64,000 nt of DNA, from NCBI GenBank assembly GCA_018302545.1, contig JAGVZM010000003.1:40058-104057 (forward strand), in the 5' to 3' direction. Shown here piece by piece: positions 3,737 to 33,085 of the stretch (position 1 is its first letter; each line of letters opens with the position of its first letter). Below the pieces are notes generated by a model. It searched no databases. It was given only the letters and a program-made list of their open reading frames with translations, and had not been told where the DNA came from. The position numbers and the translations under genes were made by a program. This DNA comes from Candidatus Woesearchaeota archaeon. Its GTDB lineage: Archaea; Nanobdellota; Nanobdellia; SCGC-AAA011-G17; GW2011-AR18.

Positions 3737-4300
3737 ATGAGTATATTTACTAAAAACAAGGTGGTTATAGTCCACGGTTGTACTTCTGATAAAAATGATT
3801 TAACTTTTAATAAACATTGGATGCCCTGGCTTAAAAAAGAATTAGAAAAATTAAATTTTAAAGTTAAAATACCTAAAATGCCAGAAACTTGGAAGCCAAA
3901 CTATAATAAATTCAAAAAAGAATTTGAAAAGAATAAAATAGATGAAGATACTATATTAATTGGACATAGTTGTGGCTGCGCTTTTATAGTTCGTTGGCTT
4001 GGAGAAACAAAACAAAAAATTAAGAAATTAATATTAATTGCCCCTTGGAAAATTTATGATAAGGATGACAAAATCAGAAAAGAATTTTATAATTATAAGA
4101 TTGACGAAAATATAAAAAAGAGAGTTAAAGAAATTATAATGTTTACTTCTAATAATGAGGAAGAAGATGGCAAAAAAAGCCTAAAGATCTTTCAAAAAGA
4201 GTTAGGCGGTAAAATTATAGAACTAAAAAATAAAGGGCACTATGCATTTGAAGATATGGGTTCAGAGGAATTTCCAGAATTATTAAAAGAGATTATATAA
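3737..4300 (+). CDS. alpha/beta-hydrolase, YdeN/RBBP9-like serine esterase
   Basis: GHSCG nucleophile elbow (GxSxG), about 187 aa. Confidence 0.5.
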   Translation: MSIFTKNKVVIVHGCTSDKNDLTFNKHWMPWLKKELEKLNFKVKIPKMPETWKPNYNKFKKEFEKNKIDEDTILIGHSCGCAFIVRWLGETKQKIKKLILIAPWKIYDKDDKIRKEFYNYKIDENIKKRVKEIIMFTSNNEEEDGKKSLKIFQKELGGKIIELKNKGHYAFEDMGSEEFPELLKEII

Positions 4301-11203: not shown

Positions 11204-11590
11204 TTATATATAAGGAATTTGAATTCTTAATCTTTCTTCCTCTTGCGAAATTACAGATCTCAATAATATTTGATCATCTAATTTGGTAAAATCTAATCCT
11301 AATCTCCTTTCTAAATATCTTATCGGATCTGCTGCAACTCTAAATACTAAATCTAAAGGCCCGCCTCTTCTTGTACATCCATAACAAATATATAAATTAC
11401 TTTTAGGCTTTAAGTAAAAAGAAGGTTCTTTCTCATCATGAAAAATACACAAACCTTTATAGTTTGATCCACTTGTTTGTTTTTTTACTCTATCTCCAAT
11501 TAAATCTAATCCAACAAATAAAATATCTAAATTTTCTAATGTTCTAAAAACTAAGTCTTCTTCTCCTCCAAAAAGTAAAAGTTGTTTCAT
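11204..11590 (-). CDS. Stand-alone CHC2 zinc-finger protein (bacterial DnaG primase zinc-binding-domain-like)
   Basis: CIFHDEKEPSFYLKPKSNLYICYGCTRRGG matches the CHC2 finger C-x-F-H-x-E-x-x-P-S-F...Y-x-C-x-x-C. Confidence 0.55.
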   Translation of the reverse strand: MKQLLLFGGEEDLVFRTLENLDILFVGLDLIGDRVKKQTSGSNYKGLCIFHDEKEPSFYLKPKSNLYICYGCTRRGGPLDLVFRVAADPIRYLERRLGLDFTKLDDQILLRSVISQEEERLRIQIPYI

Positions 11591-11595
11591 TATTA

Positions 11596-11681
11596 AGCCT
11601 CTGACGGGATTTGAACCCGCGATCTCCGCCTATTTAGACTATTTTACCAAGGCGATGCTCTACCAACTAAGCCACAGAGGC
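11596..11681 (-). tRNA. tRNA-Thr(GGU) with 13-nt intron at position 37/38. No encoded CCA.
   Basis: Manual fold gives acceptor GCCUCUG/CAGAGGC, D-arm with G18G19, anticodon stem UCGCC/GGCGG, loop UUGGUA|A, T-arm GCGGG-UUCAAAU-CCCGU and discriminator U. Confidence 0.85.
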
Positions 11682-11702: not shown

Positions 11703-12656
11703 TTATCTAAATAGTTTTGCATATCCTGCAGCAATCCTATTTTCCAACCCTAAATTTTTTGGGGAGAAACTATGAGGCAACCATTCATTAGTATCTGTTT
11801 TAAAAGTTTGTATAGATCCATCATTTCCAACATTAATAATATAAACAGGTAAAGGTTCTCCAGATTTTTCATTCAAAGATTGTATTGCTTCAGCAAATTC
11901 TAAAGCATGTTGTCTATCTTTATACATTACATTAGGAATACTCCCACTAGAAACAACAACTATCTCTTTTACATATCTTCTACTAGAATCATTACTCCCA
12001 TCCCTAAAATTACAGATAGCAGCAGAAATTGGTAGTTCTGGATGATAAGCAACATCTCCTCTAAAACTTCCTCTAAAAAGATTACCATTTTCACATACAA
12101 TAACTGCCCCATAGATTTTAGGACTAGATTCTGTTAAATAAATATCATAAGCACTTTGCTCAGCAAAGATAGCTTGTTTTATAGCATCAAGTCTTGATTC
12201 TTCTCCAATTACTTCTGTAAAATTAGATTTAAAATAGGCATTACCAGGAACAAGTACAGCAGTACCACCCTCTCTTGGAGCATTAATAATTACTAAATTA
12301 GCTAAATCAGTATATTGTTTTATAGCATCTCTACAATTACCGCAAGGATTTGGAATTTCATTACCGCCTAATCCTACAAATGCAATTATTTGAATAGAAT
12401 CTTCACTTCCGAAATTTTCCAATGCAGCAGCAATAACTGCTTCTTCGCCATGAGTCATTCCACTAGATATTCCTATCTCATGATTAGAACCTGCAACTAT
12501 ATTTCCATTTTTTGTGACTGCTCCTGTATTTACATGATATCCTGATTGAATAGGAGTAGCCTTAGATGTTAAAGCAGCCTCTAATGCTAGTAGCCATTTT
12601 GGATCTATATCCATTTTATCTTTATTTAAACCATTTATAAAATTCCATTTTGACAT
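11703..12656 (-). CDS. cdd: Cytidine deaminase, dimeric E. coli Cdd-like type (catalytic N-domain plus degenerate C-domain)
   Basis: HGEE and PCGNCRD zinc motifs in the first domain. The second domain lacks PCxxC. About 317 aa, GC-richer. Confidence 0.6.
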   Translation of the reverse strand: MSKWNFINGLNKDKMDIDPKWLLALEAALTSKATPIQSGYHVNTGAVTKNGNIVAGSNHEIGISSGMTHGEEAVIAAALENFGSEDSIQIIAFVGLGGNEIPNPCGNCRDAIKQYTDLANLVIINAPREGGTAVLVPGNAYFKSNFTEVIGEESRLDAIKQAIFAEQSAYDIYLTESSPKIYGAVIVCENGNLFRGSFRGDVAYHPELPISAAICNFRDGSNDSSRRYVKEIVVVSSGSIPNVMYKDRQHALEFAEAIQSLNEKSGEPLPVYIINVGNDGSIQTFKTDTNEWLPHSFSPKNLGLENRIAAGYAKLFR

Positions 12657-12737
12657 TTTCTTTATTCCTGGACAAACATATATTTTGTCACTTTAAATTT
12701 TCTATAATGTTACAATAACAAATTAAATATTTTTGTA

Positions 12738-14159
12738 TTAACCAGCAATCATATATAATCTCTCTCTATATTCAGCGCCTTTACCATCTCTATTAATTTT
12801 ATTTCTTAACTTCCTTAAAGCTTTATAATAATTTTGTTCTACTGCTTGACGGCTTATACCCCATGAACTAGCTATATCAACAAAACTTTCTTTTTTTCCA
12901 GAAAAACCAATTTTTCTCAAAAGTGCATCCCTTTGTCTTTTAGTTAGTTTAGATTCACCCATTAATAATTGAAGATCTGCTCTCAAAGCAAATCTTTCCT
13001 GTCTTAAAAATGATTCTTCTAAATCTACTGAGAATTTCTCATCTTCTAATAATTCAGAGTAGTCCTCTCCATCTTCATTAGACTGAGCATGTATACTGCT
13101 TGTTTTTGGCATCTCTAATAAAACAGTTTCTATTATTTTACATTCTTTAGCAATAACCTCTGATAATGAACCTTCAAAACCATTAAGGTTAGATCCACTT
13201 TCTTTTAGTTTACCAATTAAACCTTCAAAAGTATCACTTTTTTTCCTATCTCTTTTTAATTTTTTAGCTATTTGATGTTCTAAAGATCTTATTGCAACTT
13301 CTTGTTCAGAAGGATCCCTACGTAATTCTTCACTCAATTCTTTTTTAACTCTTTTAATCTTATTATATTTTATACTCCTATCATTAGGTACTCTTATAGT
13401 CCCACTTTGATCTTTTGATCCCCGTATCATATTCCCTCTAATCCTATGCTCTGCATAAGTAAGAAATCTTAAACCAGACCTATGATCATAGAGTTCTACA
13501 GCTCTTTCTAATCCTAAATTTCCTTCTTGAATAGCATCTAAAAGAGATAAGCCCCTTCTTCGTCTTCCATGAGCGAGAGGCACAACTAGATGTAGATTAC
13601 CTTCTATCAACTTACTCTTTATCCCCCTATACATATAAAGATTTTCTTCAATTCCATCTTTGACACTTTTAAACTCTGAATAATCTCCATCCTGAATAAC
13701 ACTTCTAAGATCTGAAGCTGCTTTTCTAATCACAATTGGAGGAATCTCATTAAAGAATCCTCTATATACTTCTTCAGATTTTTCATCACCAATTAGAGCT
13801 TCCATTAATCTTCTATAAGGATGTTTTTCAGGCAAGGAACCAAAACCATCACTTTCAAAATTTTTAATTTGTTCTTTAGAAAATAAACGCGTTTTTGAAG
13901 TTCCCCTATAACTTAAATAGTGTGGAACTAACAAGTACATTCCTGTTCTTCTTGAATAAACTCCTGTTGCTGAATAAGGGAATACTTGTAATTCTGTTGT
14001 AACAAGATAAGAAGCTAAATTATCATGAACAGCTGTTAACTCACCAACAATTCTTCTTTCATCACACTCATCGATCTTAGGTGTTTTAGCAATATTCCTT
14101 AAATATATTGTTTCTGCACTAAGTCCATTATCTGTATTATTTTTATTTTGTTTTTTCAT
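12738..14159 (-). CDS. RNA polymerase sigma-70 family factor (regions 1.2, 2, 3 and 4 all present)
   Basis: Region 2 GLSLLDAIQEGNLGLERAVELYDHRSGLRFLTYAEHRIRGNMIRGSKDQSGTIRVP versus the RpoD consensus [56 protein letters not shown]. Region 4 HTH LTKRQRDALL...ISRQAVEQ. Confidence 0.8.
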   Translation of the reverse strand: MKKQNKNNTDNGLSAETIYLRNIAKTPKIDECDERRIVGELTAVHDNLASYLVTTELQVFPYSATGVYSRRTGMYLLVPHYLSYRGTSKTRLFSKEQIKNFESDGFGSLPEKHPYRRLMEALIGDEKSEEVYRGFFNEIPPIVIRKAASDLRSVIQDGDYSEFKSVKDGIEENLYMYRGIKSKLIEGNLHLVVPLAHGRRRRGLSLLDAIQEGNLGLERAVELYDHRSGLRFLTYAEHRIRGNMIRGSKDQSGTIRVPNDRSIKYNKIKRVKKELSEELRRDPSEQEVAIRSLEHQIAKKLKRDRKKSDTFEGLIGKLKESGSNLNGFEGSLSEVIAKECKIIETVLLEMPKTSSIHAQSNEDGEDYSELLEDEKFSVDLEESFLRQERFALRADLQLLMGESKLTKRQRDALLRKIGFSGKKESFVDIASSWGISRQAVEQNYYKALRKLRNKINRDGKGAEYRERLYMIAG

Positions 14160-14225: not shown

Positions 14226-14368
14226 GGTGCGAGGGGTAGGATTTGAACCTACGGAGGCCTAAGCCACAGGATTTCTCCCATTCGGTCTTAAGTTTGGCAA
14301 AGCTTCAGAGCTTACCTGCCCATCTAGTCCTTCCTTAAGGAAGATTGACCAGGCTCTGGTACCCTCGC
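14226..14368 (-). tRNA. Intron-containing class-II-like tRNA (Leu/Ser type, isotype unresolved), 143 nt, CCA encoded
   Basis: Acceptor GCGAGGG/CCCUCGC + A + CCA. T-arm GUAGG-UUCAAAU-CCUAC. D-loop GAGCCUGGUCAAU. Variable hairpin GGC-UUAG-GCC. About 55 nt of extra sequence contains two tetraloop hairpins. Confidence 0.6.
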
Positions 14369-16085: not shown

Positions 16086-18674
16086 TCATTTTAACAAATC
16101 TACATCATGATGTCTGCTTTCTTTCATTCCAGCACCAGTAATCCTAATAAACTCTGCATTTTTCCATAACTCATTAATACTCTTAGATCCACAATAACTC
16201 ATCCCACTTTTCAATCCACCAATTAATTGGTAAATAACTTCTGTAACTTTCCCTCTATAAGGAATAGTCCCCTCAACGCCTTCAGGAACAACATCACTTA
16301 TGTCTGCATCATCTTTACCACTTTCTCTTTCTTTCTTACTTTTATTTGCACCAAAACCAGCCATTCCCCTATAAATTTTATATTTCCTTCCTTCCTTTAT
16401 TATTGTTTGTCCAGGACTTTCATCAGTTCCTGCTAACATATTTCCTAACATAACTGTAGAAGCTCCAGCTGCTAAAGCCTTAACAATATCTCCAGATTGT
16501 TTAATTCCACCATCAGCAATAACTGTAATTCCCACTTCATTCGCAACTTTAGCAGAATCCATAACAGCCGTTAATTGAGGCACACCACAACCAGTCTGAA
16601 TTCTAGTTATACAAATTGAATTATGAACTATTGCATTATTTGCTATAAAACTATGAGTAGGACAATCTATTTCCAAATCATAAACTTTAACACATAAATC
16701 TGTTTTTTCATTTTTTAATAATTTTACAACTTGATAATCTTCAGATAATCTTTTTTCTCCTGTATTTATTATTTCAGAAATATAACTTTGGCTAAAATTA
16801 TCCAAATTAGCATTTTTCAAATTACCTTTACTAATTTTCTTTTTTTGATTATTTGGAAATACACCTTTTAATAAATAGTGAACAATATTAAATAATTCTA
16901 TTAATTTTATTGAAGTATTTGAAAATCTTATTCTTCCCCTTTCTTCTATATTTCCATCTGTATCAATTAAACCATCTAAAATACCTTGCAAATATTCTCT
17001 ATTATTAATTAAATATTTTTGTGGTAATTCTTTATTTTTCTTTTTTCCAAAAGATTGTAAAAAATCTGAAAACGGTTTATAATATAAAATAACTTGAATT
17101 ATATTCTCTTTATATGTTACTTTACATTCTTTATTAAAGATATTTATTATAAATTTCATTAATTTATTAACTTTATCAATTTCATGCTTCCCAAAATACC
17201 ATCTAACAGAACCAACACGAGAATTTTTCTTTGAAATGCCGCTATGTGAAGACCCATCACCTAAAAATGTTCCAAAAATATAACCTAATTCATAACAAGG
17301 TTCAAGACTTACATCATTTAGATATTTATATCGAATTATCCAATTACCCCCAACTCTTTTTTTCAAATTAATTTTAAAATATTGTTCTAGTTCAAACTTT
17401 ATTTCTCTAGGAATTAATAAAACATCTTGTCTAAAATCTTTTACTTCTTTCCACTTGTATTTTGAAGCTTTAGGAATTGTTTTGCTTTGTTTTTGTAATA
17501 ATCTTACATAACCCCTACTTTGTATAGTTTCAATTGAAGAAGTATTCAAGTCTCCTACCCAATACCTATGTTCTGGAGTTACATGGGTTTCTTCATAAAA
17601 TATAGAGTTTCTAATTTTTCTAACTTCTTTAATTCCAGTACAAAATGCTTTTTTAACATTCACAGGTTCTCCATTCTTATTTATTACTCTTTCACCAGCC
17701 TTAATTTCTTCAATATTTTTATAAATTCCATTAGACATTAATACCCTAGTTCCTGCAGCAAAACAGCCCCCTCCAACTCCGACCTTAATACAATCTGCTC
17801 CCGCATTAATTAAATCTAAAGTTCCTTCAGCTGTAGCAACATTTCCAGCAATTATTTGAACATCTCCAAATCTATCTTTAATATTTTTTATAGTAGAAAG
17901 AGTCATATCATGATGTCCATGCGCAACATCTATACAAAGAACATCACATCCAACCTTAATTAAAGCTTCAGTTCTATCCAAATAATCTCCTTTAACCCCA
18001 ACAGCAGCACCAACTAATAATCTCCCTTTCTTATCTTTAGTAGCCAGAGGATGTTTCTCTCTATTAGTTATATCCTTAGCAGTAATTAACCCTTTTAAAA
18101 TTCCTTTACTATCAATTAAAGGAAGTTTCTCAATTTTATTTTGCTTTAATATTTCTTTTGCATTTTCAATATCTTTATTTATGTCACCAATAATTGATTT
18201 TTCTTTTGGAGTCATCAAATCTTTAATTTGTTTTAATAAATTGTCCTCAAACATCATATCTGTGTTTGTTAAAATTCCCACATATCTTCCAACATTATCT
18301 GTAATGGGAATTCCTGTAATATTTTTATCCTGCATTAAAATTTTAGCATCTTTTAAATTATGTTCTGGAGTTAAAGTATAAGGATTCTCTATTACAATTG
18401 CTTCTGATCTTTTAACTTTTAAAATTTCTTTAACTTGGTCGTCTATAGTTAAAAATCTATGAATAATTCCAAGACCCCCTTGTCTTGCCATTTCAATTGC
18501 CATTGCACTTTCCGTAACAGTATCCATATTGGCGCTTATTATAGGCATATTTAGTTTAATTTTATTAGTTAAAAAAGAACTTATATCAACATTTTTTCTA
18601 GAATATATATTGGAAAGTTTAGGAACTAATAAAACATCATCATAAGCTAATGCCTCTCTTATTTCATTATTCAT
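16086..18674 (-). CDS. guaB: Inosine-5'-monophosphate dehydrogenase containing an in-frame intein
   Basis: N-extein carries IMPDH and CBS domains. Catalytic loop VGVGGG|SICITR is split by 382 aa starting with Cys and ending HN. The intein holds two LAGLIDADG blocks. Confidence 0.9.
16620..17765 (-). other. Intein (382 aa) with LAGLIDADG homing-endonuclease domain, inserted at the IMPDH catalytic-Cys loop
   Basis: N-terminal Cys1 (CFAAGTRV). C-terminal ...IVHN with +1 Ser. Endonuclease blocks [13 protein letters not shown] and [14 protein letters not shown]. Confidence 0.8.
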
Positions 18675-21718: not shown

Positions 21719-23554
21719 CTATAAACTTTTAGGCGTAAGAGAAATTTCTTGAGAAACATCAACTTTTTCATCTCCTAAATAACCACCATAAAATTTATAC
21801 ATTGTTGTAGGATCAATATAAGCGCTATAGTTCTTTCTTTCAATTTTAAAATCTAATTTAAAACCAAAGTGCAAATGGACTCCACTCTTACCTTTAACCC
21901 TCCCAGTTCTTCCCATCTGCATAAGATCCTGTCCTAAACCAACTTGATCTAAAGGAGAAACATTAAAAGTATTAGGAACACCATGCAAATAGAATGTTTC
22001 AAATCCTAATTCAGGTTTACCATGTCTAACTTTAACATAATAACCATTAATATTATCTGAACCAGTATCTACAACAACCCCATCCATCACTGAATATATA
22101 GGATCTCCTTGAACTCCAGCTGTAGCAGGAGCAATGTCTATACCGTTATGGTGTCTTCCCCACCTTACCCCAAAATAAGAATTTATCTCAGTATTGACAG
22201 TAGGCCAACCTACACCTTGTTTTAAAGTCAAATAATAAGCCATTACTCTCCTTACATAATCATTTGTTTGATAAGTAAGATGATGTAAAACATCCCAGAT
22301 ATCATTGCTTCCAGCTTTTAGTTTTGCTTCTTTAACTTTTTTAGGACCAGCATTGTAATTTGCTAAAATCTCTACTAAAGAATCTTCTCCTGATGATGGG
22401 GAGTATCTACTATAAAGAGCAATACTATACACCGCTGCTCTTATATTTTCAGATGGATCATTTTTTACTTTATCCCAAGAAAATTCTTCACCACTCAAAA
22501 CCCCGCTTCTAATCAACCTATTTAATTCATCAACATTAATTCTTGTTTGTTGAGTAAGTCCATAAGCATCTTCTCCAGATTTTTTTACTTTTCTTTTCTT
22601 CCCATCAAAGTGTTTGAAATCTCCAGATTCAACAATTGCAATGGCTCTTCCAAAATCAGGATCAACCTCAAAATTATTTCTTTGATTAAATCTTTCTGCA
22701 TGATAGGCAAATGCATCCCAATAAGTTAATTGACCTTGTTCAAAAACATAACCTTCTCTACCTCTCCTTATTTCTTCTTTTCTTTTAATCTCCATTCTAG
22801 GAAGTTCAGGAATTTTTATTCTTTCAACCAAGCCGCTAATATCAGGAGTAGTTAATCCTGGTCTTTCAAGTGCAGCATGTGCAGCGCTAACTGAAAATAA
22901 AGCATATAATAAAGGGACTTTAGATGCCATCCTATTCCTTGCAGGAATCTTAGCTTTTTTTCTATTAAAATATCTTGACAAATCTCTACCAACTTTAACA
23001 CCCAATCCTGAAATTAATCCACCAACACCTAATTTAACCAAATCAAAATCATCTATAACAGTATAACCTAAATGTAAAGTTCCAGCACCAGCCACAAGAG
23101 GTAAAAGATATTTATTATTAACAAATTTATTTTCAGTCAAAAATCTCCTAGCATCAACAATTTTTTGATGCACCTTTCTTAATGCTCCTTTACCTTTAAC
23201 AACATAACTTCCTTTACTTTGATCATATAATCTATATAAATTAATACCTGTAGGAACTGCAATTCCAAATATTCCTGTTAAGCTAGCACCCCATTCTAAT
23301 ATAGAATAAGTTGTATCTCCAATAAACATTCCCATTTGAGTGCTTTCAACACTTAAAGCAAGACCTGCAGCACCAGGAATTAACCATTTCTCAACATGGG
23401 GCTTTATATCTCTTAATGTAGAGTTAAGTCTATCATCTAATTTACCAATTCCTTTTAAGAGTATATCTAATCCCATAACAATACAATTACCACAACTAAG
23501 TAGAAAATTTATAAAGATTTGTATAAGATAAAATTTGTCACTAATAAGAGACAA
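21719..23554 (-). CDS. Membrane-anchored peptidoglycan hydrolase with lytic transglycosylase (SLT) and M23 peptidase domains
   Basis: SLT motif ES...GLTQQ. M23 motifs HNGIDIA and HLHFG. N-terminal TM segments. GC-richer. Confidence 0.7.
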   Translation of the reverse strand: MSLISDKFYLIQIFINFLLSCGNCIVMGLDILLKGIGKLDDRLNSTLRDIKPHVEKWLIPGAAGLALSVESTQMGMFIGDTTYSILEWGASLTGIFGIAVPTGINLYRLYDQSKGSYVVKGKGALRKVHQKIVDARRFLTENKFVNNKYLLPLVAGAGTLHLGYTVIDDFDLVKLGVGGLISGLGVKVGRDLSRYFNRKKAKIPARNRMASKVPLLYALFSVSAAHAALERPGLTTPDISGLVERIKIPELPRMEIKRKEEIRRGREGYVFEQGQLTYWDAFAYHAERFNQRNNFEVDPDFGRAIAIVESGDFKHFDGKKRKVKKSGEDAYGLTQQTRINVDELNRLIRSGVLSGEEFSWDKVKNDPSENIRAAVYSIALYSRYSPSSGEDSLVEILANYNAGPKKVKEAKLKAGSNDIWDVLHHLTYQTNDYVRRVMAYYLTLKQGVGWPTVNTEINSYFGVRWGRHHNGIDIAPATAGVQGDPIYSVMDGVVVDTGSDNINGYYVKVRHGKPELGFETFYLHGVPNTFNVSPLDQVGLGQDLMQMGRTGRVKGKSGVHLHFGFKLDFKIERKNYSAYIDPTTMYKFYGGYLGDEKVDVSQEISLTPKSL

Positions 23555-23737: not shown

Positions 23738-24943
23738 TTATTCTAATTGATTAAATCTTCCATTATACCTATTATCCCCATAACTAGCACCATCAAATTT
23801 TAAATCCCTTAAACAAACGCTTCTGTAAAATACTTCTCTGCCTAAATCTTCAGCACCACCAACAACTTCAATTTCTCCTTCAAAAGGAGCAGGAATACTA
23901 CTCTTACCTTTAATATGTATCATTCTTTGACTCTCTGTAGATGGGTGATTCTTACAATCAACACAGATACCATACATAACTTCAACTTCATCAGCTAAAC
24001 ACATCAAAGCGCTTGTTTCACCAAACCTTTTTCTATTGTAAGTTCTAGCTAATCCAAACACAACAATATCATATCCTTCAGATAATAAATTATGTACAGG
24101 CATATAAAGACCTTTAAGAGGTTCATCTTTTAAACCGATAAATTGAGATTCATCAATAAACACAGTTTTAACATTAGGATTTCTAATTACTCTATCGTAA
24201 ACCTCTTGTCCATTTGTAACCCCTATAGAATCAAATTCAGCCCTATCATGTGTTGCACATTTTCCTGTTTCAGAATACCTATTATCAGCTGCATAATTAA
24301 AAACCATAAATTCATTTTGTCTTAATTCTTCTTCAGCAACTAAATCTCCTAAAGTGGTTGTTTTTCCAACATACATCGGACCTGTTTTTACCATTAATTT
24401 TCCATGTCTTGGCCTTCCACCTTGTTTTGAAAAATGAGTAACACACCTAGGCTCATAATCTCTATCAATTTTAATACTTCTTCCAGCAGGAAGTTCACAA
24501 AAACCATCACCACATATAGCTTTCAAAACCTTAACATCATCAGAAATAGCCATTAAATCTGCCATAGAACCATAAGGCCAACCTTCTGAATCTAAATTTA
24601 AACCATAACCTATAACATTCCTGCCACTTCTAACTAAAGAATCAACTAAATCGACTATTCCTTCCTCCTTTTTAAAATGAGAAATTCCAGAGATTAGTAT
24701 CGCTCTAGTTTCATCAGTAATCAGTTCTGCAATTCCATTAGGATGTTCTAAAACATAGGCTTCATGACCTCCAATTTTACCAGGACTTCCAACATCATCC
24801 ATGGGATGTTTAACAACTAAAAAATTACCATTATGCTTGAAACCACTTGCTCTTGCAGAATTTAGAACTCTTACAGCATGGAATGTTTTTCTGGATTTAA
24901 CCGGACCAGAAAATAAAGTAAATTTCGCTAGTTTATAGGGCAA
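23738..24943 (-). CDS. tdk: Tandem-duplicated thymidine kinase (TK1 type). The N-terminal copy has a degenerate P-loop.
   Basis: C-terminal half has GPMYVGKTT, FIDESQF and a CxxC ribbon. N-terminal half is a TK-like fold with GPVKSRKT. Confidence 0.7.
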   Translation of the reverse strand: MPYKLAKFTLFSGPVKSRKTFHAVRVLNSARASGFKHNGNFLVVKHPMDDVGSPGKIGGHEAYVLEHPNGIAELITDETRAILISGISHFKKEEGIVDLVDSLVRSGRNVIGYGLNLDSEGWPYGSMADLMAISDDVKVLKAICGDGFCELPAGRSIKIDRDYEPRCVTHFSKQGGRPRHGKLMVKTGPMYVGKTTTLGDLVAEEELRQNEFMVFNYAADNRYSETGKCATHDRAEFDSIGVTNGQEVYDRVIRNPNVKTVFIDESQFIGLKDEPLKGLYMPVHNLLSEGYDIVVFGLARTYNRKRFGETSALMCLADEVEVMYGICVDCKNHPSTESQRMIHIKGKSSIPAPFEGEIEVVGGAEDLGREVFYRSVCLRDLKFDGASYGDNRYNGRFNQLE

Positions 24944-25111: not shown

Positions 25112-26893
25112 ATGAGAAAAGTATTAGCTATTGTAGAAAAAGACAAATGTCATCCAGATAAATGTCAGCATGAATGTATGAAATATGATCCAATAAATAA
25201 AACAGGGGGAGAAGGATTCCATATTAGTGAAGAAACCAAAAAGGCATGTATAAGCGATTCTGTAGTTATGGAAATGCATAAGATTTCAGCAAAAAAATGC
25301 CCCTTTCATGCAATTCACATTGTTAATCTGCCTGAAAAATTAAAAGAAGATCCAATACACAGTTATGGTTTAAACTCATTCGAGCTTTATTCACTGCCTC
25401 ATGTAAAAGAAAAGACAGTAGTTGGAATAATTGGAAGAAATGGAATTGGAAAATCTTCAGCATTACAATTTTTAACAGGAACTATAAAACCAAATTTAGG
25501 AAATTATCAAAAGCCTCTAAAAGAAAATGAAATAATTGAGAGATATTCAAATTCTTGGGTGGGAGAATATTTCAAAAAATTACTAAATAAACAATTAAAA
25601 ATTGCTTACAAACCTCAGCGTGTGGAGTTGCTCACTTCAATTTACAAAGGATATACTGTAAAAGAATTATTAAGCAAAGTAGATGAAAGAAAAATAATTC
25701 ACACACTATTAAATGATTTAGATATCCCAACAATAGAAAATAGAAAAATAGAAGAATTATCTGGTGGAGAATTACAAAGAGTTGCGATAATTGCAACAGT
25801 AGCTAAAAAAGCTGATGTTTATTATTTTGATGAGCCCTCATCTTTTTTGGATATAACTCATAGGATAAAAGCTGCTAGATTAATAAGATCTTTAGCTGAA
25901 AATTCTTCTGTTGTAGTAGTTGAACATGACTTAGCCACATTGGATTATATATCAGATGAAATCCAAATTGTTTATGGAGAACAAGCATGTTACGGTATAT
26001 TCTCTCAATCTAAAGCAGTAAGAAGAGGTATTAATGAGTATATGGAAGGTTTTCTACCTGATGAAAACATAAAGTTCAGACCATACTCAATAAAATTTGA
26101 AGAGCGCCCCATAGATAAATTTGTCTCACAAGAATTAATTTTAGAATTTCCAGAATTAGAAAAATCATATACATCATTTAAATTAAAAACCTCTCCTGGA
26201 AAATTACACAGAGGAGAAGTATTAACAATTATGGGAGCGAATGGTTTAGGCAAATCTACATTCTTAAAACTACTTTCAGGATTAGAAATTTCAGATAAAG
26301 GAAAATTAGAAAAGGTAAGGATAAGTTATAAACCTCAATACTTAAAAAATGATATTGAGGGTAATGTAGAGGATTATCTCAAGGGAATAGCAGGTTCTGA
26401 ATTCAATTCTTCTTGGTTCAAAGCGAATATTTTAGAAAAACTGAATATACAATCAATTTTACAAAATAAAATTTCTGAACTATCTGGAGGAGAATTACAA
26501 AAAGTTCACATAGCTGCTTGTCTAGCTTGTCCAGACAAAGATATAATAACAATGGATGAGCCTTCTGCTTTTATAGATGTAGAAGATAGATTAAATGTAG
26601 CAGAGATAATTAAGGATTTTGTAATAAACAAAAACATCGCAGCAATAATTGTAGATCATGATATCCAATTTATAGATTACTTAGCAGATTCTATGTTAGT
26701 CTTTGAAGGAACTCCTGCAAAGGAGGGACATGTTTTAGGAACTTTATCTAAAAGAGAAGGAATGAACAAAGTTCTAAAAGATTTAGATATTACTTATAGA
26801 AGAGATAAACAAACTGGTAGACCGCGTATCAATAAACCAGGTTCTCAATTAGATCAAGAACAAAGACATAAAGGGGAACATTACTATATCTAA
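25112..26893 (+). CDS. abcE1: ABCE1 (RNase L inhibitor, RLI), ribosome recycling ATPase with twin ABC domains
   Basis: N-terminal CHPDKC...KCPFHAIHIVNLPE, two Walker A/B domains and signature LSGGELQ. Several Fe-S ligand cysteines are replaced. Confidence 0.85.
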   Translation: MRKVLAIVEKDKCHPDKCQHECMKYDPINKTGGEGFHISEETKKACISDSVVMEMHKISAKKCPFHAIHIVNLPEKLKEDPIHSYGLNSFELYSLPHVKEKTVVGIIGRNGIGKSSALQFLTGTIKPNLGNYQKPLKENEIIERYSNSWVGEYFKKLLNKQLKIAYKPQRVELLTSIYKGYTVKELLSKVDERKIIHTLLNDLDIPTIENRKIEELSGGELQRVAIIATVAKKADVYYFDEPSSFLDITHRIKAARLIRSLAENSSVVVVEHDLATLDYISDEIQIVYGEQACYGIFSQSKAVRRGINEYMEGFLPDENIKFRPYSIKFEERPIDKFVSQELILEFPELEKSYTSFKLKTSPGKLHRGEVLTIMGANGLGKSTFLKLLSGLEISDKGKLEKVRISYKPQYLKNDIEGNVEDYLKGIAGSEFNSSWFKANILEKLNIQSILQNKISELSGGELQKVHIAACLACPDKDIITMDEPSAFIDVEDRLNVAEIIKDFVINKNIAAIIVDHDIQFIDYLADSMLVFEGTPAKEGHVLGTLSKREGMNKVLKDLDITYRRDKQTGRPRINKPGSQLDQEQRHKGEHYYI

Positions 26894-28698
26894 TAACCAA
26901 TTTGTTTTCTTATTGCTTTTAAATGAGGCACCAATGCTTTAGTCCAACTTTCTAAAACACCTTCAACTCTTCCACCAATTAAATCATTTATATCCACAAG
27001 ATTACCTTCAACAATAGACTTATCCTTAACTCGAACTTCTCCATCTGTATAAGTAGCATAAATTAATCCAAAATGATCCTTATCTACTTCTTCATCCTCA
27101 ACATATAAAGTTCCTACTAAGCTTGGTTCTGAATATTTTTCTTCAAACGTAACATCTCCTAAAACTTTATCTCTCAAACAATTAGCAATATAATCTGGCC
27201 CATGAGATCTAGCAACATGACCTCCAACTCCAATAGAGATTTTATCAAATAATCTTTTATCTCCATAATCCTTAATGTCACTAGATCTTCTATAAATAAA
27301 CACCTTATCTGAATTAGTAAATATGAGCATATAATCAATTACTTGCAAGACCTCAGGATCGCCTTCACAATCATATCTAGAATGGAAAAATCCTTTTTCA
27401 CATGTTTTTATTATCTCCCCTCTTTGAGCATCAGAATCTATAGATTCAAAACCAAATCTACCTCTTCTATTATTCAATAAACTCTCTTTCTCTTCAACCA
27501 ATACCAATCTATCTAATTTTCCATGTTCTTTAGCAGCACTTTTATAATCAAAATTAGTAAAATGCTTTGAAACTTTTGGGCCCCTCTGTCCTTGATAACT
27601 AGAACCTATTTTAGATCCATAAACTTTATCTGCATCCACTTCACATCTAAAAACATCTAATACACTTATAGGCATGCCATGTTCTAGTGCAATAGGTTTT
27701 AATTCATCTGATCTTACTTCAAAAACCAAATCTCCTAAGAATCCAGGATCTATAAAACCTGCAAAATGTAACATCCCTTGTATTCCAGTATGGTGTGTTG
27801 CCCTAACTTCAGAGCTTAATGCTGGACCAAACCTTAAAATTTCCGCAGAACTAAATAAATAATATTTTTCAGGTTCAATAACAACTCTTCCATCTTTAGC
27901 AAAAACAGGTTCGAAATAATCTTCAGACACTGACCCATTAGACTTTGATAAGTCAACAACAAAAGGAGGTTGTCTAGCCATTAAACCAACAATCCCAGAG
28001 CTAGACTTTCCTTCAAGATTTAATCTAACAACTAATTCTCCATTATCAATCTTAGCAGGAGTTAATGTTCCTCTTTCATCAGAATAGAGAAGCATAGGAT
28101 TTCTAATATGCTCTTCTATAATCTCCTTGTCATTTAACTTAGAATCTAAACCTTGGAAAAATCTAAGTTGGTTTAAAGTTAATCCTTCTGAAGCTTTTAC
28201 ATTAAATACCATAGGTTGTACTAATAACCATAGATCAGAAACACAACTATCTTCTCTTCCAATTAACTCATCAAAACTTGCGCTGTAATCTACTAATAAC
28301 CTAGTATTCAAAAAATTTCTTCCAGTTGTACTTTTAGGAGAAGATTTTACGCGTTGTCCTTCGCTTAATTTAATTTTTTCATTTAATTTTAATAAATAAG
28401 AATACCCAACTAATAAATGATCATCATCAAGTCTTATCTTTCTCCTTTTTCTCTTCTCTAAATGGAGTAAATGTCTATAAACCGAGTCTTTGCTAGTACC
28501 TTTAAAACCAGTAGCATCTAAAACATAACCATCTCCACTTAAAGTAGGTTCAAAAGAAGCAGGTTGCACTCTTTTTTCTAAAGCAGCACAATTATTTATT
28601 TCTTGAGATCCTTTAAAATTTCCCTCAGGAACAACTAACCTTCCTTCAACAATTAAATTTCTAATATCTTGAGAATTTAAAGCATAACCTCTTGTCAT
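26890..28698 (-). CDS. dCTP deaminase/dUTPase-superfamily protein, long form with extra C-terminal domain
   Basis: N-terminal DIRNLIVEGRLVV and HFAGFIDPGFLGDLVFEV resemble dCTP deaminase motifs. 602 aa. Confidence 0.45.
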   Translation of the reverse strand: MTRGYALNSQDIRNLIVEGRLVVPEGNFKGSQEINNCAALEKRVQPASFEPTLSGDGYVLDATGFKGTSKDSVYRHLLHLEKRKRRKIRLDDDHLLVGYSYLLKLNEKIKLSEGQRVKSSPKSTTGRNFLNTRLLVDYSASFDELIGREDSCVSDLWLLVQPMVFNVKASEGLTLNQLRFFQGLDSKLNDKEIIEEHIRNPMLLYSDERGTLTPAKIDNGELVVRLNLEGKSSSGIVGLMARQPPFVVDLSKSNGSVSEDYFEPVFAKDGRVVIEPEKYYLFSSAEILRFGPALSSEVRATHHTGIQGMLHFAGFIDPGFLGDLVFEVRSDELKPIALEHGMPISVLDVFRCEVDADKVYGSKIGSSYQGQRGPKVSKHFTNFDYKSAAKEHGKLDRLVLVEEKESLLNNRRGRFGFESIDSDAQRGEIIKTCEKGFFHSRYDCEGDPEVLQVIDYMLIFTNSDKVFIYRRSSDIKDYGDKRLFDKISIGVGGHVARSHGPDYIANCLRDKVLGDVTFEEKYSEPSLVGTLYVEDEEVDKDHFGLIYATYTDGEVRVKDKSIVEGNLVDINDLIGGRVEGVLESWTKALVPHLKAIRKQIGY

Positions 28699-28845
28699 GC
28701 TCTTGCATTCAATTTAACTTTTAAATACATTTATATCCAGAAAAAGTTACAACAAAACACTATTAAGGCTACAACTAAAATAGTAATAACAACTAAAAAC
28801 ATATTTTCTATTTAAGAAAATTATTTAAATCATTTCAACATCAGA

Positions 28846-28892
28846 ATACTATATTTTGTGTTTTACTTCAAATAAGACACAATATATTGTGT
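28846..28892 (+). promoter_or_regulatory. Two NrdR boxes. Box 2 ACACAATATATTGTGT (28877-28892) is a perfect palindrome. Box 1 is ATACTATATTTTGTGT (28846-28861). Centres are 31 bp apart.
   Basis: Match to the NrdR-box consensus acaCwAtATaTwGtgt. Lies in the divergent intergenic region just upstream of nrdR. Confidence 0.7.
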
Positions 28893-28909
28893 TTACTCTA
28901 GGGTAATAA

Positions 28910-29362
28910 ATGAAATGTATATTTTGTAACAACACAGAAACAAAAGTAGTTGATTCAAGAGAATCAGAAGATTTAACAAGAAGAAGAAGGGAATGTTTAA
29001 TCTGTCAAAAAAGGTTTACAACTTATGAAAGAGCAGAAGATCCGCAAGTATACATAATAAAGAAGGATAATAGAAGAGAATTATACAATAGGGGAAAACT
29101 AAAAGGGGGAATATTAAAAGCCTGTGAAAAAAGACCAATATCATTAGAAAAAATTGATATAGGTATAAACAAGATCGAGTCAAAACTAAGAACCTTAGAA
29201 AATAATGAAATACAAAGTAAGTTGCTTGGTGAAGAAGTAGCAAAAATGTTAAAACAACTTGATAAGGTAGCATACATAAGATTCGCATCTGTTTACAGAG
29301 AGTTTGAGGACATCGGAGACTTTAAAAAAGAAATTCAAATACTATCAAAAAGAAGGGGGTAA
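28910..29362 (+). CDS. nrdR: Transcriptional repressor NrdR (zinc ribbon plus ATP-cone)
   Basis: MKCIFCNNTETKVVDSRESEDLTRRRRECLICQKRFTTYE. Confidence 0.85.
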   Translation: MKCIFCNNTETKVVDSRESEDLTRRRRECLICQKRFTTYERAEDPQVYIIKKDNRRELYNRGKLKGGILKACEKRPISLEKIDIGINKIESKLRTLENNEIQSKLLGEEVAKMLKQLDKVAYIRFASVYREFEDIGDFKKEIQILSKRRG

Positions 29363-29367
29363 TGTAA

Positions 29368-31944
29368 ATGCAAAAAGAAGAAATAAAAAGAGGAGAAGAT
29401 TCTGTTTCTACATTTGAGGAGGGTTTGCAATCTATAGAGGAGTTAGCTACAAAAGGAACTAAAGTTCAGGTTACTGAAAATCAATTAAAGGTTATGCAGA
29501 ATAAATATTTAAGAGGAGATTCTGTTGAATTATGGTTAAGGAGAATAGCAAGAAACATTGCATTGCCAAATGTTTATTATTATTCTAAAGAATTTCAAAA
29601 AGAAATATTAAAAGGAGTAAAACATAAGATTACAATTTCAAATGATGAATATAAATCTGAATCTTTGCTCTTACAATTACCTGAGTTAACCAGAAATGAA
29701 AGAACCCAAAATTTCTATAAGTTTGAAGATAATATTATTAAGTTTGCACAAAAAAATAAAGAAGCAACCAAGATATTAAGATCTAAAGAAGAACAATTTT
29801 TCAAATTTTTATCTAGTTTTGATTTTTTACCAAACTCTCCATGTTTAATGAATGCTGGAAGAGATCTTCAAGGTTTACATGCATGTTATGTAATTCCTGT
29901 AGGAGACTCACTTGAAGAAATTTATTATGCTGTAACTACTATGGCTTTAATTCATCAATCTGGTGGAGGAACAGGCTTTGCATTCTCTAGATTAAGACCA
30001 GAAGGAGATAAAGTTAGATCTACTAAAGGAGTTTCATCTGGTCCTATGTCTTTCATAAAACTCTTTGATACCTCAACAGATGTTGTTCGTCAAGGAGGAA
30101 CTAGAAGAGGTGCAAATATGGGTATTTTACATTACAAACACCCAGATATTAGAAGTTTTATAACCTCAAAATCCAAAGACAAAGGTTTCTTACAGAACTT
30201 TAATATCTCTGTAGGAATAGATGAAGAATTTATTAAAGCAGTTGAAATTGGTGGAGAAATAGACTTAATTAATCCTAGGACTAATCAAGTAGTAAAAAGA
30301 GAAAAAGCAAGAGAGTTATGGGATTTAATGGCAAAATGTGCATGGGAAACAGGAGATCCTGGTTTTGTTGTTATAGATAGAATTAATAATACAAATTCAA
30401 ACCCAACACCAAAATTAGGTCCAGTAGAATCTACTAACCCGTGTGGAGAGCAACCCCTATTACCATGGGAGCCTTGTACTTTAGGTAGTATTAATCTATC
30501 TAATCATGTAACAGAAGAAAAAGGAAAGACAATTGTAGACTATCAAAAATTAGAATACACTTCAAAATTAGCAACAGAGTTTTTAGAGAATGTTGTTGAA
30601 ATGGGCAATTATCCTCTTCCAGAAATTGAAGTAATATCTAAAGGAAATAGACGTATAGGATTAGGAGTTATGGGTTGGGCAGAAATGTTAGTCAAATTAG
30701 AAATCCCCTATGACTCAGAGGAAGCAATAACATTAGCAGAGGAAGTAATGGCATTTATAAATGCTAAAGCTCTAGAAGCTTCTCAAGAACTATCAGAGCT
30801 AAGGGGAGTATTCCCCAATTACAAAGACTCTATCTACGACAAGAAAGGAACCTATTTTAGAGGTCAAGATATAAAAGTAAGAAATTGTGCAACAATAGCT
30901 CCAACAGGCACTATAGCAATAACTGCAGGTCTACAAGGCTCCGGTATTGAACCTTTCTTTGCAATTGCTTACAAAAGATATCAAGCAGAAGCGGTAGATG
31001 CCTTAAAGTTAGGTAAAGAACCAGATTCAAAATATGTTTATTTTGAAGTCATACCTGCCTTTTTGGAAGTAGCAGAAAAACACAATTGGTTCGGAGCAGA
31101 TAAAAATACTTTGCTTAAAAAAATATCAGATAATCACTCTTCTGTAAAAGGAGTTAAAGAAATTCCAGAACATATACAAAAAGTATTTGTGTCTTCTCAT
31201 GACATTCATTGGAAAACACATATAGACCATCAAGCAGCATATCAAAGAAATGTTGATAATGCAGTTTCAAAAACGATTAACATGACTAATTCAGTAACTA
31301 TAGAGGACATACAATCAGCTTACTTATATGCATATAAGTCTGGATTAAAAGGAGTGACTGTTTATAGAGATGGATGTAAAGAAGTACAAGTATTGAATTT
31401 AGCCCAAGACAAAAAAAAACAAGAACAAAAGCAAATACAAAAACAAAAAATAGAAAAAAAAGAAATTGATTATACAAAAGGCGCATCATCTGATTACTAT
31501 GAAATTGAGACAGGTTACGGAACTTTACATGTTAATATAGTTCATGACTCAGATGGTCCTTCAAAAATATTTGCTTCCATACCTCCATTAGGTACAGAGT
31601 TAAGTAATTTGACATGTGTTTTAGGAATATTTATGACTAAAGCATTTGAAGCTGGTTATGATCCTAGAAAAGCAATCAAACACTTAAATTCTGCAAAAGG
31701 AGATAAACCCATTGGATTTGGTGCAAATAGAATTGACTCAATACCTCATGCAATTGCTGTAGCTCTAAAAAGACATTTAGAGAAAACAGGTAAAGTAGGA
31801 GATCAAGAACAAAAAAGATTAACAGAGATGGACATTGGTGTTAAACAAGAACATTGTCCAAAATGTTATTCACCAAATGTAGAATATGTATCTGGTTGTT
31901 CATCTCCAACATGTATAGATTGTGGACATTCAGAATGTAGTTAA
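29368..31944 (+). CDS. nrdJ: Class II (adenosylcobalamin-dependent) ribonucleotide reductase with C-terminal zinc ribbon
   Basis: Active-site NPCGEQPL. C-terminal CPKC...CIDCGHSEC. K/Q-rich low-complexity linker. Confidence 0.85.
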   Translation: MQKEEIKRGEDSVSTFEEGLQSIEELATKGTKVQVTENQLKVMQNKYLRGDSVELWLRRIARNIALPNVYYYSKEFQKEILKGVKHKITISNDEYKSESLLLQLPELTRNERTQNFYKFEDNIIKFAQKNKEATKILRSKEEQFFKFLSSFDFLPNSPCLMNAGRDLQGLHACYVIPVGDSLEEIYYAVTTMALIHQSGGGTGFAFSRLRPEGDKVRSTKGVSSGPMSFIKLFDTSTDVVRQGGTRRGANMGILHYKHPDIRSFITSKSKDKGFLQNFNISVGIDEEFIKAVEIGGEIDLINPRTNQVVKREKARELWDLMAKCAWETGDPGFVVIDRINNTNSNPTPKLGPVESTNPCGEQPLLPWEPCTLGSINLSNHVTEEKGKTIVDYQKLEYTSKLATEFLENVVEMGNYPLPEIEVISKGNRRIGLGVMGWAEMLVKLEIPYDSEEAITLAEEVMAFINAKALEASQELSELRGVFPNYKDSIYDKKGTYFRGQDIKVRNCATIAPTGTIAITAGLQGSGIEPFFAIAYKRYQAEAVDALKLGKEPDSKYVYFEVIPAFLEVAEKHNWFGADKNTLLKKISDNHSSVKGVKEIPEHIQKVFVSSHDIHWKTHIDHQAAYQRNVDNAVSKTINMTNSVTIEDIQSAYLYAYKSGLKGVTVYRDGCKEVQVLNLAQDKKKQEQKQIQKQKIEKKEIDYTKGASSDYYEIETGYGTLHVNIVHDSDGPSKIFASIPPLGTELSNLTCVLGIFMTKAFEAGYDPRKAIKHLNSAKGDKPIGFGANRIDSIPHAIAVALKRHLEKTGKVGDQEQKRLTEMDIGVKQEHCPKCYSPNVEYVSGCSSPTCIDCGHSECS

Positions 31945-31998: not shown

Positions 31999-32718
31999 AT
32001 GAAATCAAATATAACTAGAAGGTTGATAGTATCAGATTTAGACGAGATATTCTTTCCAATAAGACAAGTTTATGTAAATGCAATAAACATGAGATTTGGT
32101 CTTAGTTTAGATTCATCTAGTTATAATTGTTATGGGGTAATGGCTTGGTTAGCTTCTCATCATCCAGAAGTTTTTGCTGAAATTGAAAGAAGAGGAGGAA
32201 AACTTGAACATTTTAAGTGGTTAAGCGTAAATACTAATTTATTACAAGATACTCCTCCAATTCCAGGAACAGCAGAATATGCAGGAGAACTTAAAGATAG
32301 AAAAATATCACTAGGAATTGCAACCCATAGAGCATCTCCAAAAGATCCCCATTATTATTATCAAGATGGTCCAAAAATAACAAGAGAATGGTTAGTAAGA
32401 TTTGGAATACCCTTTGATTTTATAGAATTTACAGGAGAAAAAGCAGCTGCAATAGCAAAAATAGAAGGAGAAGCAGGCTGTTCTGCAGAAGTATATGTTG
32501 AAGACCATCCAGCAAATATAATTGAAACTCTTGAAGCAGGTTACAGAGTAGCATTTCCAGATAAAACTTATAATCAAGCAGATTTAATTTCAGAAGATGC
32601 AGATCCTATAAGTTATGGTAATGGTAGGTTTACTCAAGAAAAATGGACAAACACTTTAAGGTCTCCTAGAGTTCATAGAATAAAGCATTTAAGAGATATA
32701 TCTGATTTAGTTGCATAA
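31999..32718 (+). CDS. HAD-like hydrolase, possible 5'(3')-deoxyribonucleotidase
   Basis: IVSDLDEIF resembles the HAD motif I DxDG. Sits within the nucleotide cluster. GC-richer. Confidence 0.3.
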   Translation: MKSNITRRLIVSDLDEIFFPIRQVYVNAINMRFGLSLDSSSYNCYGVMAWLASHHPEVFAEIERRGGKLEHFKWLSVNTNLLQDTPPIPGTAEYAGELKDRKISLGIATHRASPKDPHYYYQDGPKITREWLVRFGIPFDFIEFTGEKAAAIAKIEGEAGCSAEVYVEDHPANIIETLEAGYRVAFPDKTYNQADLISEDADPISYGNGRFTQEKWTNTLRSPRVHRIKHLRDISDLVA

Positions 32719-32776: not shown

Positions 32777-33085
32777 ATGCTAGAATTAAACAAGATAAAT
32801 TACAAAGAAGTAATATCTAAAGGAAAAGTAGTAGTTGACTATTGGGCCCCCTGGTGCGGCCCCTGCAGGGCAATGGCTCCTATATTTGAAGAACTAAGCA
32901 AAGAATTCAAAAAAGTCAAATTCACAAAATTAAATGTAGATGAAAATCAAGAAATTGCTTCTAAGTTAGGGATTCAGGGTATACCCACTTTAATTTTGTT
33001 TAAAGAGGGGAAGGAAATAAAAAGAAGAACAGGTTTACTCTCTAAATCAGCTTTAAAAGAACTTTTAGAAGACAATTTTTCTTAA
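32777..33085 (+). CDS. trxA: Thioredoxin
   Basis: WCGPC active site, about 102 aa. Confidence 0.85.

Follow-up and report, generated by a model that had tools for sequence, protein, structure and literature searches.

We analysed a 64,000-nt stretch of DNA, referred to below as the window, from contig JAGVZM010000003.1 (assembly GCA_018302545.1, positions 40,058 to 104,057) of a Candidatus Woesearchaeota archaeon, a member of the DPANN archaea, and focused on two short sequences in front of nrdR, the gene of the regulator NrdR, and nrdJ, the gene of a class II (B12-dependent) ribonucleotide reductase (RNR). As judged from the sequence, these two sites very probably form the functional NrdR operator of an autoregulated nrdR-nrdJ operon. 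Box 1, ATACTATATTTTGTGT, occupies positions 28846-28861 and box 2, ACACAATATATTGTGT, positions 28877-28892; the latter is a perfect 16-bp palindrome and matches the consensus. A 15-bp linker (28862-28876) separates the two, their centres are 31 bp apart, and 17 nt lie between box 2 and the nrdR ATG at 28910. The original prediction, which a model had made from the letters of the window, proposed this pair of boxes and is correct to the base in its coordinates, the perfect palindrome and the centre-to-centre distance; its reading of the pair as a canonical NrdR operator, whose centres stand about three helical turns apart, is borne out by the spacing and by the six core positions considered next.

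Paired NrdR boxes upstream of nrdR-nrdJ

NrdR boxes are described in the literature as partially palindromic sequences of 16 bp, in which C4, A6, A8, T9, T11 and G13 are highly conserved (PMC13584703). Two boxes are required for NrdR binding (PMC13584703), and the predominant linker between them measures 15-16 bp (PMC13584703, PMC12051234), lengths of 14-17 or 24-27 bp being tolerated. In the window, box 1 and box 2 each carry all six conserved positions, the 15-bp linker agrees with the published spacing, and the pair lies directly before an RNR operon. The operator may also overlap the transcription start: the start predicted from the position of the BRE/TATA element (see below), in a promoter of archaeal and not of -35/-10 type, would fall inside box 1.

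The loose published regular expression cannot discriminate in a window of 30% GC, where it returned 15 pairs against 14.4 expected from shuffles; a strict six-position core and a consensus-weighted 16-mer score, with a maximum of 22, were therefore used instead. The strict core, C.A.AT.T.G, has 25 matches in the window (21 expected), and only one pair of them shows a permitted spacing; such a pair arose in 91 of 2000 shuffles. With the weighted score, box 2 reaches 22 of 22 and box 1 reaches 20, which makes them the top two 16-mers of the 64 kb, the third-ranked one scoring 18, and the pair score of 42 compares with a maximum of 35 among 100 shuffles. When the palindrome was searched with up to three mismatches, box 1 and box 2 were the only two matches in the window. 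One further box-like 16-mer, AATGTATATTTTGTAA, was found 21 bp after box 2 (28914-28929, nrdR codons 2-7) and rejected: it scores 15, has no C4 and arises from the TGT...TGT codons that encode the CxxC of the zinc ribbon.

The NrdR protein and its operon

The product of nrdR (28910-29362, +) has 150 aa and consists of a zinc ribbon with two CxxC motifs (C3-x2-C6 and C29-x2-C32) followed by an ATP-cone. Family membership was judged by TIGR00244 / PF22811 plus PF03477. The protein scores 176.6 bits against the TIGR00244 equivalog (cut-off 124.65), its zinc ribbon covers profile positions 1-42 of 42 of Pfam Zn_ribbon_NrdR (E 8.4e-17), and the ATP-cone is found at residues 48-134 (Pfam, E 5.4e-18). 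It aligns over its full length, with no large gaps, to the NrdR of E. coli (9fvr, E 1e-41) and of Streptomyces coelicolor (7p37, E 1e-24). In the cryo-electron microscopy structure of S. coelicolor NrdR the DNA-contact residues are R12, D15, R17, R26-29 and R37 (PMC9110341); they correspond to K12, D15, R17, R24-27 and R35 in the window protein, and a K at position 12 is also present in E. coli NrdR. An identical NrdR is recorded at NCBI as 'transcriptional regulator NrdR [Candidatus Woesearchaeota archaeon]'. The protein is thus a bona fide NrdR with both domains intact, and not the defective form that the original prediction had named as a ground for abandoning its proposal.

The next gene, nrdJ (29368-31944, +), starts 5 nt past the nrdR stop and is preceded by the Shine-Dalgarno-like GGGGGTAAT. 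Its product of 858 aa, which has no intein, matches Pfam Ribonuc_red_lgC (E 2e-122) and TIGR02504 NrdJ_Z (639 bits, cut-off 400). In three close relatives (L084, L088 and L089) nrdJ carries one or more inteins, with products of 1229-2116 aa. The archaeal origin of the host, also part of the original prediction, agrees with the Candidatus Woesearchaeota archaeon record and with archaeal genes on the same contig, namely those of ABCE1/RLI, aTrm56, a TrmB regulator and a family B polymerase.

Past nrdJ there are a 239-aa open reading frame (ORF; 31999-32718, +) with no significant family match (a faint HAD_2, E 0.045) and, downstream of it, a thioredoxin ORF (32777-33085, +). The nrdJ stop is followed by T-runs and a TATA-like element, which suggest that these genes would be on a separate transcript. 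In relatives the corresponding place is taken by an NT5C-like deoxynucleotidase.

Conservation of the operator in archaeal and bacterial loci

Six close relatives, with NrdR proteins 75-80% identical to that of the window, were retrieved, and the 150 nt upstream of nrdR were aligned by plain MAFFT (alignment A1); this alignment of seven sequences is the one conservation test that is independent of the motif. All six relatives have nrdR-nrdJ. The columns A3, C4, A6, T11, T12 and G13 of box 1 are invariant, and box 2 holds ten invariant positions, including the core C4, A6, A8, T11 and G13, while the linker has no invariant column save for the TTT right after box 1. On the other side of box 2, in the predicted 5' leader (28893-28909, +), the window reads TTACT at 28893-28897 and a Shine-Dalgarno-like GGGTAA at 28901-28906; all seven sequences share TTTACT after box 2 and a GGTAA before the ATG. 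The neighbour upstream varies among these relatives, being a divergent dcd, a co-directional dcd, DHFR, a dCMP deaminase or an unknown gene, and the conserved block therefore belongs to nrdR.

A scan of species-representative genomes gave 54 archaeal-labelled and 26 bacterial nrdR loci. In 24 of the 54 archaeal and 10 of the 26 bacterial loci, the best box pair of the locus is directly upstream of nrdR with a 15-16 bp linker. Altogether, the same box pair was found before nrdR-nrdJ or nrdR-nrdD in 30 other archaeal loci (31 with the window); C4 and G13 are both kept in box 1 of all 31 and in box 2 of 30, and the linker measures 15 bp in 11 loci and 16 bp in 20. The comparative footprinting that the original prediction had suggested was in this way positive, in the close relatives as well as in the wider archaeal loci.

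The gene downstream of the boxed archaeal loci is nrdJ (19 loci) or nrdD (nine, five of them confirmed by Pfam NRDD), or else the contig ends. Among 30 unboxed archaeal loci nrdJ follows in only two, a difference with Fisher P = 3e-12 between loci that are mutually related. The boxes thus track the adjacent reductase gene and not nrdR, and the pair is missing where no reductase gene stands next to nrdR. About 28 of the archaeal loci (within L012-L052) form a tight clade in which nrdR has neither a box pair within ±4 kb nor an adjacent RNR gene.

The two boxes being copies of one palindrome, the corresponding RNA can pair with itself, and a reading of the site as an RNA element, in which a long hairpin of the 5' leader would attenuate transcription or mask translation, was weighed. 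In the computed fold of the segment 28846-28915 (-14.1 kcal/mol, z -2.6) the two boxes pair with each other, and 4 of 200 shuffles fold as well. Nevertheless, two copies of any palindrome will pair, and the fold is then a by-product; a transcript starting inside box 1 would lose half of the stem, and the intergenic region has no meaningful match in Rfam. In addition, the conserved positions are those of the NrdR contacts and not those that would maximise pairing, and no compensatory changes were seen that keep the pairing while breaking the box consensus. An RNA-level function is, of all the alternatives weighed here, the one to which we give the least credence, and we retain the reading of the boxes as a protein-binding operator.

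A predicted archaeal promoter upstream of the boxes

Most first genes of the window are preceded by a motif of the form GAAA-N-TTTAWATA, which resembles the archaeal transcription factor B recognition element (BRE) and TATA box and is centred 23-26 nt before the ATG, so that the mRNAs of most first genes look leaderless; internal genes are preceded by GGAGG-like motifs. A position weight matrix (PWM) was built from 31 promoters of this window. In the intergenic region between nrdR and the divergent dCTP-deaminase-like (dcd-like) gene, its best plus-strand match lies at 28816-28835, with a score of 7.1 that is within the training range, and neither NrdR box is among the ten best matches. The predicted nrdR-nrdJ promoter (28814-28831, +) comprises a BRE-like AAGAAAA (28814-28820) and a TATA-like TTATTTAAAT (28821-28830), the TATA 8-mer of the PWM, TTTAAATC, being at 28824-28831; it ends 14 nt before box 1, and the AAGAAAA-TTATTTAAAT element is kept in the close relatives. 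With a start at the customary 24-27 nt past the TATA centre, the transcript is predicted to begin at about 28851-28855, inside box 1.

This arrangement recurs in the wider set. In 30 of the 31 archaeal loci box 1 is preceded by an element resembling BRE/TATA, the end of which lies 7-26 nt before the box; such an element stands at this distance from 3.1% of random anchors in the same loci and in none of nine bacterial loci. Conversely, TTGAC adjoins box 1 in 7 of 10 bacterial loci and in none of the 31 archaeal ones. Bacterial box 1 is therefore the spacer between -35 and -10, as TTGAC(A) directly precedes it and the linker starts with a TATAAT-like hexamer. A sigma-70 promoter scan of the dcd/nrdR intergenic region of the window gave no match. 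On promoter geometry alone, we lean towards placing the boxes downstream of an archaeal BRE/TATA element rather than within a promoter of bacterial type.

The promoter might instead be embedded in the operator, the AT centre of box 2 (AATATATT) serving as the TATA of a leaderless nrdR mRNA and NrdR competing with TBP. The distance would be right: TATA centres of first genes in the window are most often at -23 to -26, and the centre of box 2 is at -25.5 from the nrdR ATG. However, the PWM made from those same genes leaves both boxes outside its top ten while giving 28816-28835 a score within the training range, and all close relatives keep unchanged the SD-like GGTAA (SD, Shine-Dalgarno) that lies between box 2 and the ATG. 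Moreover, among the archaeal loci the start codon lies anywhere between -2 and 59 nt from box 2 (213 nt in one outlier), whereas the spacing between TATA and box 1 is held at 7-26 nt, and in loci with 5-7 nt between box 2 and the ATG a TATA within box 2 would place the start inside the gene. We regard an embedded promoter as unlikely and keep the upstream BRE/TATA element as the predicted promoter.

Several points weigh against the operator and promoter layout that we propose. The TATA was assigned by its match to a consensus, in DNA that is rich in AT, and most other first genes look leaderless, with the centre of box 2 at the -25.5 given above. The 31 archaeal loci are mutually related, so that P-values overstate their independence, and the box logo of the distant loci was gathered with a consensus-based score and hence carries an ascertainment bias. 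The scan for further boxes was limited to 64 kb of the genome. Lastly, repression by the archaeal NrdR and its dependence on nucleotides are extrapolated from bacteria.

Two other conserved elements were seen upstream of the predicted promoter. The element AAACATATTTTC (28797-28808, +) lies about 23 nt upstream of the TATA 8-mer, and ATATWYTY at -21 or -23 from the TATA recurs in 14 of the 31 archaeal nrdR loci, compared with one of 31 further promoters taken from the window; by its score (14 of 22) it is not an NrdR box. Further upstream, CTAAAATAGTA (CTA-W3-TAGTA, 28775-28785) has invariant columns in the seven close relatives only, despite their differing upstream genes; its central W3 occurs in either orientation, and its score, too, is not that of an NrdR box. 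Both elements may be sites for another factor. A hydrophobic ORF of 23 codons in the same intergenic region, MFLVVITILVVALIVFCCNFFWI (28731-28802, -), was discarded because its reading frame is not kept in relatives, and the conservation at that place is therefore at the DNA level. In three other loci (L076, L034 and L038) a third NrdR box is present upstream of the TATA. That of L076 is perfect (ACACAATATATAGTGT, at about 3908-3923) and lies 31 bp before box 1, so that the TATA is flanked by boxes; in the window no such third box is present, the best score upstream of the TATA being 14, at background level.

Origin of the operator

A rough neighbour-joining (NJ) tree groups the DPANN NrdRs with those of the Candidate Phyla Radiation (CPR), apart from other bacteria, and, beyond the close clade, NrdJ has its best match in a Woesebacteria protein (51% identity). 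Taken together, the tree and the NrdJ match suggest a possible exchange between the co-occurring DPANN and CPR groups.

Such a history leaves room for the boxes to be an inactive relic, brought along with a bacterial nrdR-RNR cassette by horizontal transfer and without a role under the archaeal machinery. The clustering with CPR bacterial NrdRs and the Woesebacteria NrdJ would fit, as would the transfer of an nrdR-RNR operon into haloarchaea, which is documented (PMC3019208). Yet across archaeal NrdRs that are 55-80% identical the essential box positions are invariant while the linker and flanks diverge, and all DNA-contact residues are kept in NrdR. The bacterial -35/-10 has also been replaced by a BRE/TATA at a constrained distance, which argues for selection on the operator in its archaeal context. 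We thus hold an inert remnant to be very improbable. It appears somewhat likelier than otherwise, from these comparisons, that the NrdR operator moved between the domains as a module and was re-fitted to the archaeal transcription machinery in DPANN. The two boxes, which in CPR bacteria make up the -35/-10 spacer and the early transcribed region, would in DPANN have come to lie 7-26 nt past a BRE/TATA.

Proposed mechanism of regulation

The biochemistry of bacterial NrdR underlies a model of an ATP/dATP switch (PMC9110341, PMC12051234), which we apply here by analogy. When dATP rises relative to ATP, the ATP-cone would take up ATP plus dATP, NrdR would assemble into a tetramer that contacts the two boxes from the same side of the helix through its zinc ribbons, and nrdR-nrdJ would no longer be transcribed. 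With ATP alone, NrdR would form oligomers incapable of binding DNA and the operon would be expressed. In the window, the archaeal BRE/TATA at 28814-28831 would drive a transcript from about 28851-28855, with a leader of about 57 nt that holds box 2 and the SD-like GGGTAA. With the start placed inside box 1, a bound tetramer would cover about -7 to +40, and NrdR would most likely block the recruitment or escape of the archaeal RNA polymerase and not the binding of TBP/TFB.

Archaeal repressors that sit over the start downstream of the TATA and block polymerase recruitment include MDR1 of Archaeoglobus, Phr and LrpA of Pyrococcus and NrpR of Methanococcus. The resemblance of NrdR to them would be positional only (about -7 to +40, as predicted), the protein families being unrelated; in contrast to these repressors, NrdR is a zinc-ribbon/ATP-cone sensor of ATP/dATP that acts as a tetramer on two sites three helical turns apart. 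If the model is true, a bacterial-type ATP/dATP sensor gates the archaeal pre-initiation complex at the step of polymerase recruitment, and the site described here would be the first at which the architecture of operator and promoter is defined for an archaeal NrdR. A DPANN archaeon with a small genome would, moreover, keep a dedicated feedback loop from the deoxynucleoside triphosphate pool to its RNR.

The NrdR regulon within the window

The original prediction went further and placed a weaker box in front of a cdd-like gene (11703-12656, -), with a regulon reaching across the nucleotide genes of this archaeon. The sequence in question, ACAAACATATATTTTGT (12672-12688), lies upstream of the cdd-like gene, in its AT-rich promoter region, and is not an NrdR box. 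Its best 16-mer scores 15 of 22, a value reached by 199 16-mers in the window, and the register that fits best, CAAACATATATTTTGT, has A at position 4 and T at position 13, so that the essential C4 and G13 are both missing. The sequence is palindromic in its outer 5 bp only, and no partner box accompanies it at a distance of 14-17 or 24-27 bp. A scan of metagenomes for relatives of the cdd-like gene gave two loci (L090 and L091), a thin sample, and ACAAACATATATTTTGT is not conserved upstream of either. Another sequence common to the cdd upstream region and the region past the nrdJ stop, AAACATATATTTT, was likewise set aside: it has 3 matches against 1.6 expected and is thus not enriched, and the copy after nrdJ is not conserved in relatives.

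The dcd-like gene (26890-28698, -) does share its upstream region with nrdR physically, as the original prediction had it. A TATA-like TTTAAAAG at 28718-28725 (-), within a PWM match at 28714-28733 (score 6.8), is centred about 23.5 nt from the gene's own ATG and lies about 120 bp from the NrdR boxes; with a TATA of its own at that distance, the dcd-like gene is unlikely to be co-regulated. In the 64-kb window boxes were found only at nrdR-nrdJ, and none at adk, the cdd-like gene, IMPDH, polB, tk, the dcd-like gene or trx. Within the window, therefore, the NrdR regulon is the RNR operon only.

In favour of the cdd-like and dcd-like genes as further direct targets of NrdR there are the intergenic region common to the dcd-like gene and nrdR and the partly similar AT-rich sequence before the cdd-like gene. 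Set against these are the background-level cdd site with neither C4/G13, partner nor counterpart in L090/L091, the need of NrdR for two boxes (PMC13584703) and the separate, distant dcd-like TATA; in relatives, furthermore, dcd is often co-directional or missing beside the same operator. We therefore consider a broader regulon of this kind highly improbable.

The dcd-like protein itself has 602 aa, of which residues 39-381 are covered by DCD_N, DCD and DCD_C; the approximately 220 C-terminal residues have no Pfam or NCBIfam match. The same long form is present in L088 (606 aa), and the forms of L086, L087 and L089 have 364-374 aa.

Comparison with other NrdR systems

One of the closest known counterparts is the nrdRJ operon of S. 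coelicolor (7P37; PMC9110341), in which nrdR is likewise followed by a class II nrdJ in an autoregulated operon. Both systems have two 16-bp boxes with a 15-bp linker, C4 and G13 in both boxes, and conserved DNA-contact residues in the protein. Unlike S. coelicolor, the window belongs to an archaeal host, has no -35/-10 and has a BRE/TATA-like element upstream of its boxes; box 2 is centred on AT (consensus) in the window and on AA in S. coelicolor nrdRJ, and the window NrdR, with 150 aa, is without the long C-terminal tail of the S. coelicolor protein (195 aa).

Among the nearest bacterial NrdRs retrieved are those of CPR/Patescibacteria (L011 Woykebacteria, L081 and L077), which show 54-58% identity and cluster with the archaeal proteins. 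Their operators have the same boxes and a linker of 15-16 bp, and where the downstream gene was recovered it is nrdJ or, in L081, an ATP-cone-bearing, RNR-like gene. The TTGAC(A) at the 5' edge of box 1 and the TATAAT-like start of the linker are features of bacteria, unlike the archaeal loci, and a median of 64 nt separates box 2 from the start codon in bacteria, compared with 23 nt in archaea. This contrast, with the same operator and another core promoter, would make a natural example of a repressor site that survives transfer between transcription systems.

In archaea, nrdR has been described at the head of RNR operons in haloarchaea, where nrdR-nrdA/B operons of bacterial origin were listed in 2010 together with signs of a transfer between the domains (Lundin et al. 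2010, PMC3019208). Those operons are of class I, belong to Halobacteriales and are given with no operator in PMC3019208, whereas the operon described here is of class II, is found in DPANN and has a defined operator. NrdR has been reported in 22% of archaeal genomes (PMC13584703), while one recent preprint holds it to be absent from archaea; the large-scale surveys of NrdR boxes cover bacterial genomes only (PMC13584703). Our literature search found no paper that ties NrdR to DPANN lineages or to archaeal promoter elements, and no archaeal NrdR operator layout, binding study or map of transcription start sites. NrdR in archaea is thus already documented, and the one mildly new point is that an archaeal BRE/TATA consistently stands a short way upstream of the operator. 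The knowledge of NrdR itself is unchanged; what is added is a concrete predicted layout of operator and promoter for an archaeal NrdR.

Other features of the window

Apart from the NrdR system, the window encodes a 473-aa protein (12738-14159, -) with Sigma70_r2 (E 1.8e-10), r3 and r4 domains; this archaeal contig thus carries the gene of a sigma-70-like protein of bacterial type. Sigma-70 genes have previously been reported in Woesearchaeota, their function being unexplained (PMC8204110).

ARAGORN found no tRNA in the window. Rfam gave one at 11596-11681 (-), which has 86 nt and probably contains an intron. A second tRNA-like sequence of about 142 nt, missed by both programs, lies at approximately 14226-14367 (-); its acceptor halves are GCGAGGG/CCCTCGC, its T-loop is GGTTCAAATCC, its CCA is encoded, and large or non-canonical introns are presumably present.

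IMPDH (16086-18674, -) is interrupted by an intein with Hint and LAGLIDADG domains. The thymidine kinase ORF (23738-24943, -; 401 aa) has its kinase domain at residues 181-377, and the preceding N-terminal extension of about 180 aa is without a match; its start is a TTG, which may be mis-set. Finally, three genes are of bacterial or mobile type: one for a protein that combines an M23 peptidase with an SLT transglycosylase (21719-23554, -), a stand-alone DnaG-type CHC2 zinc-finger ORF (11204-11590, -) and an IS605 OrfB/TnpB gene (2502-3653, +).

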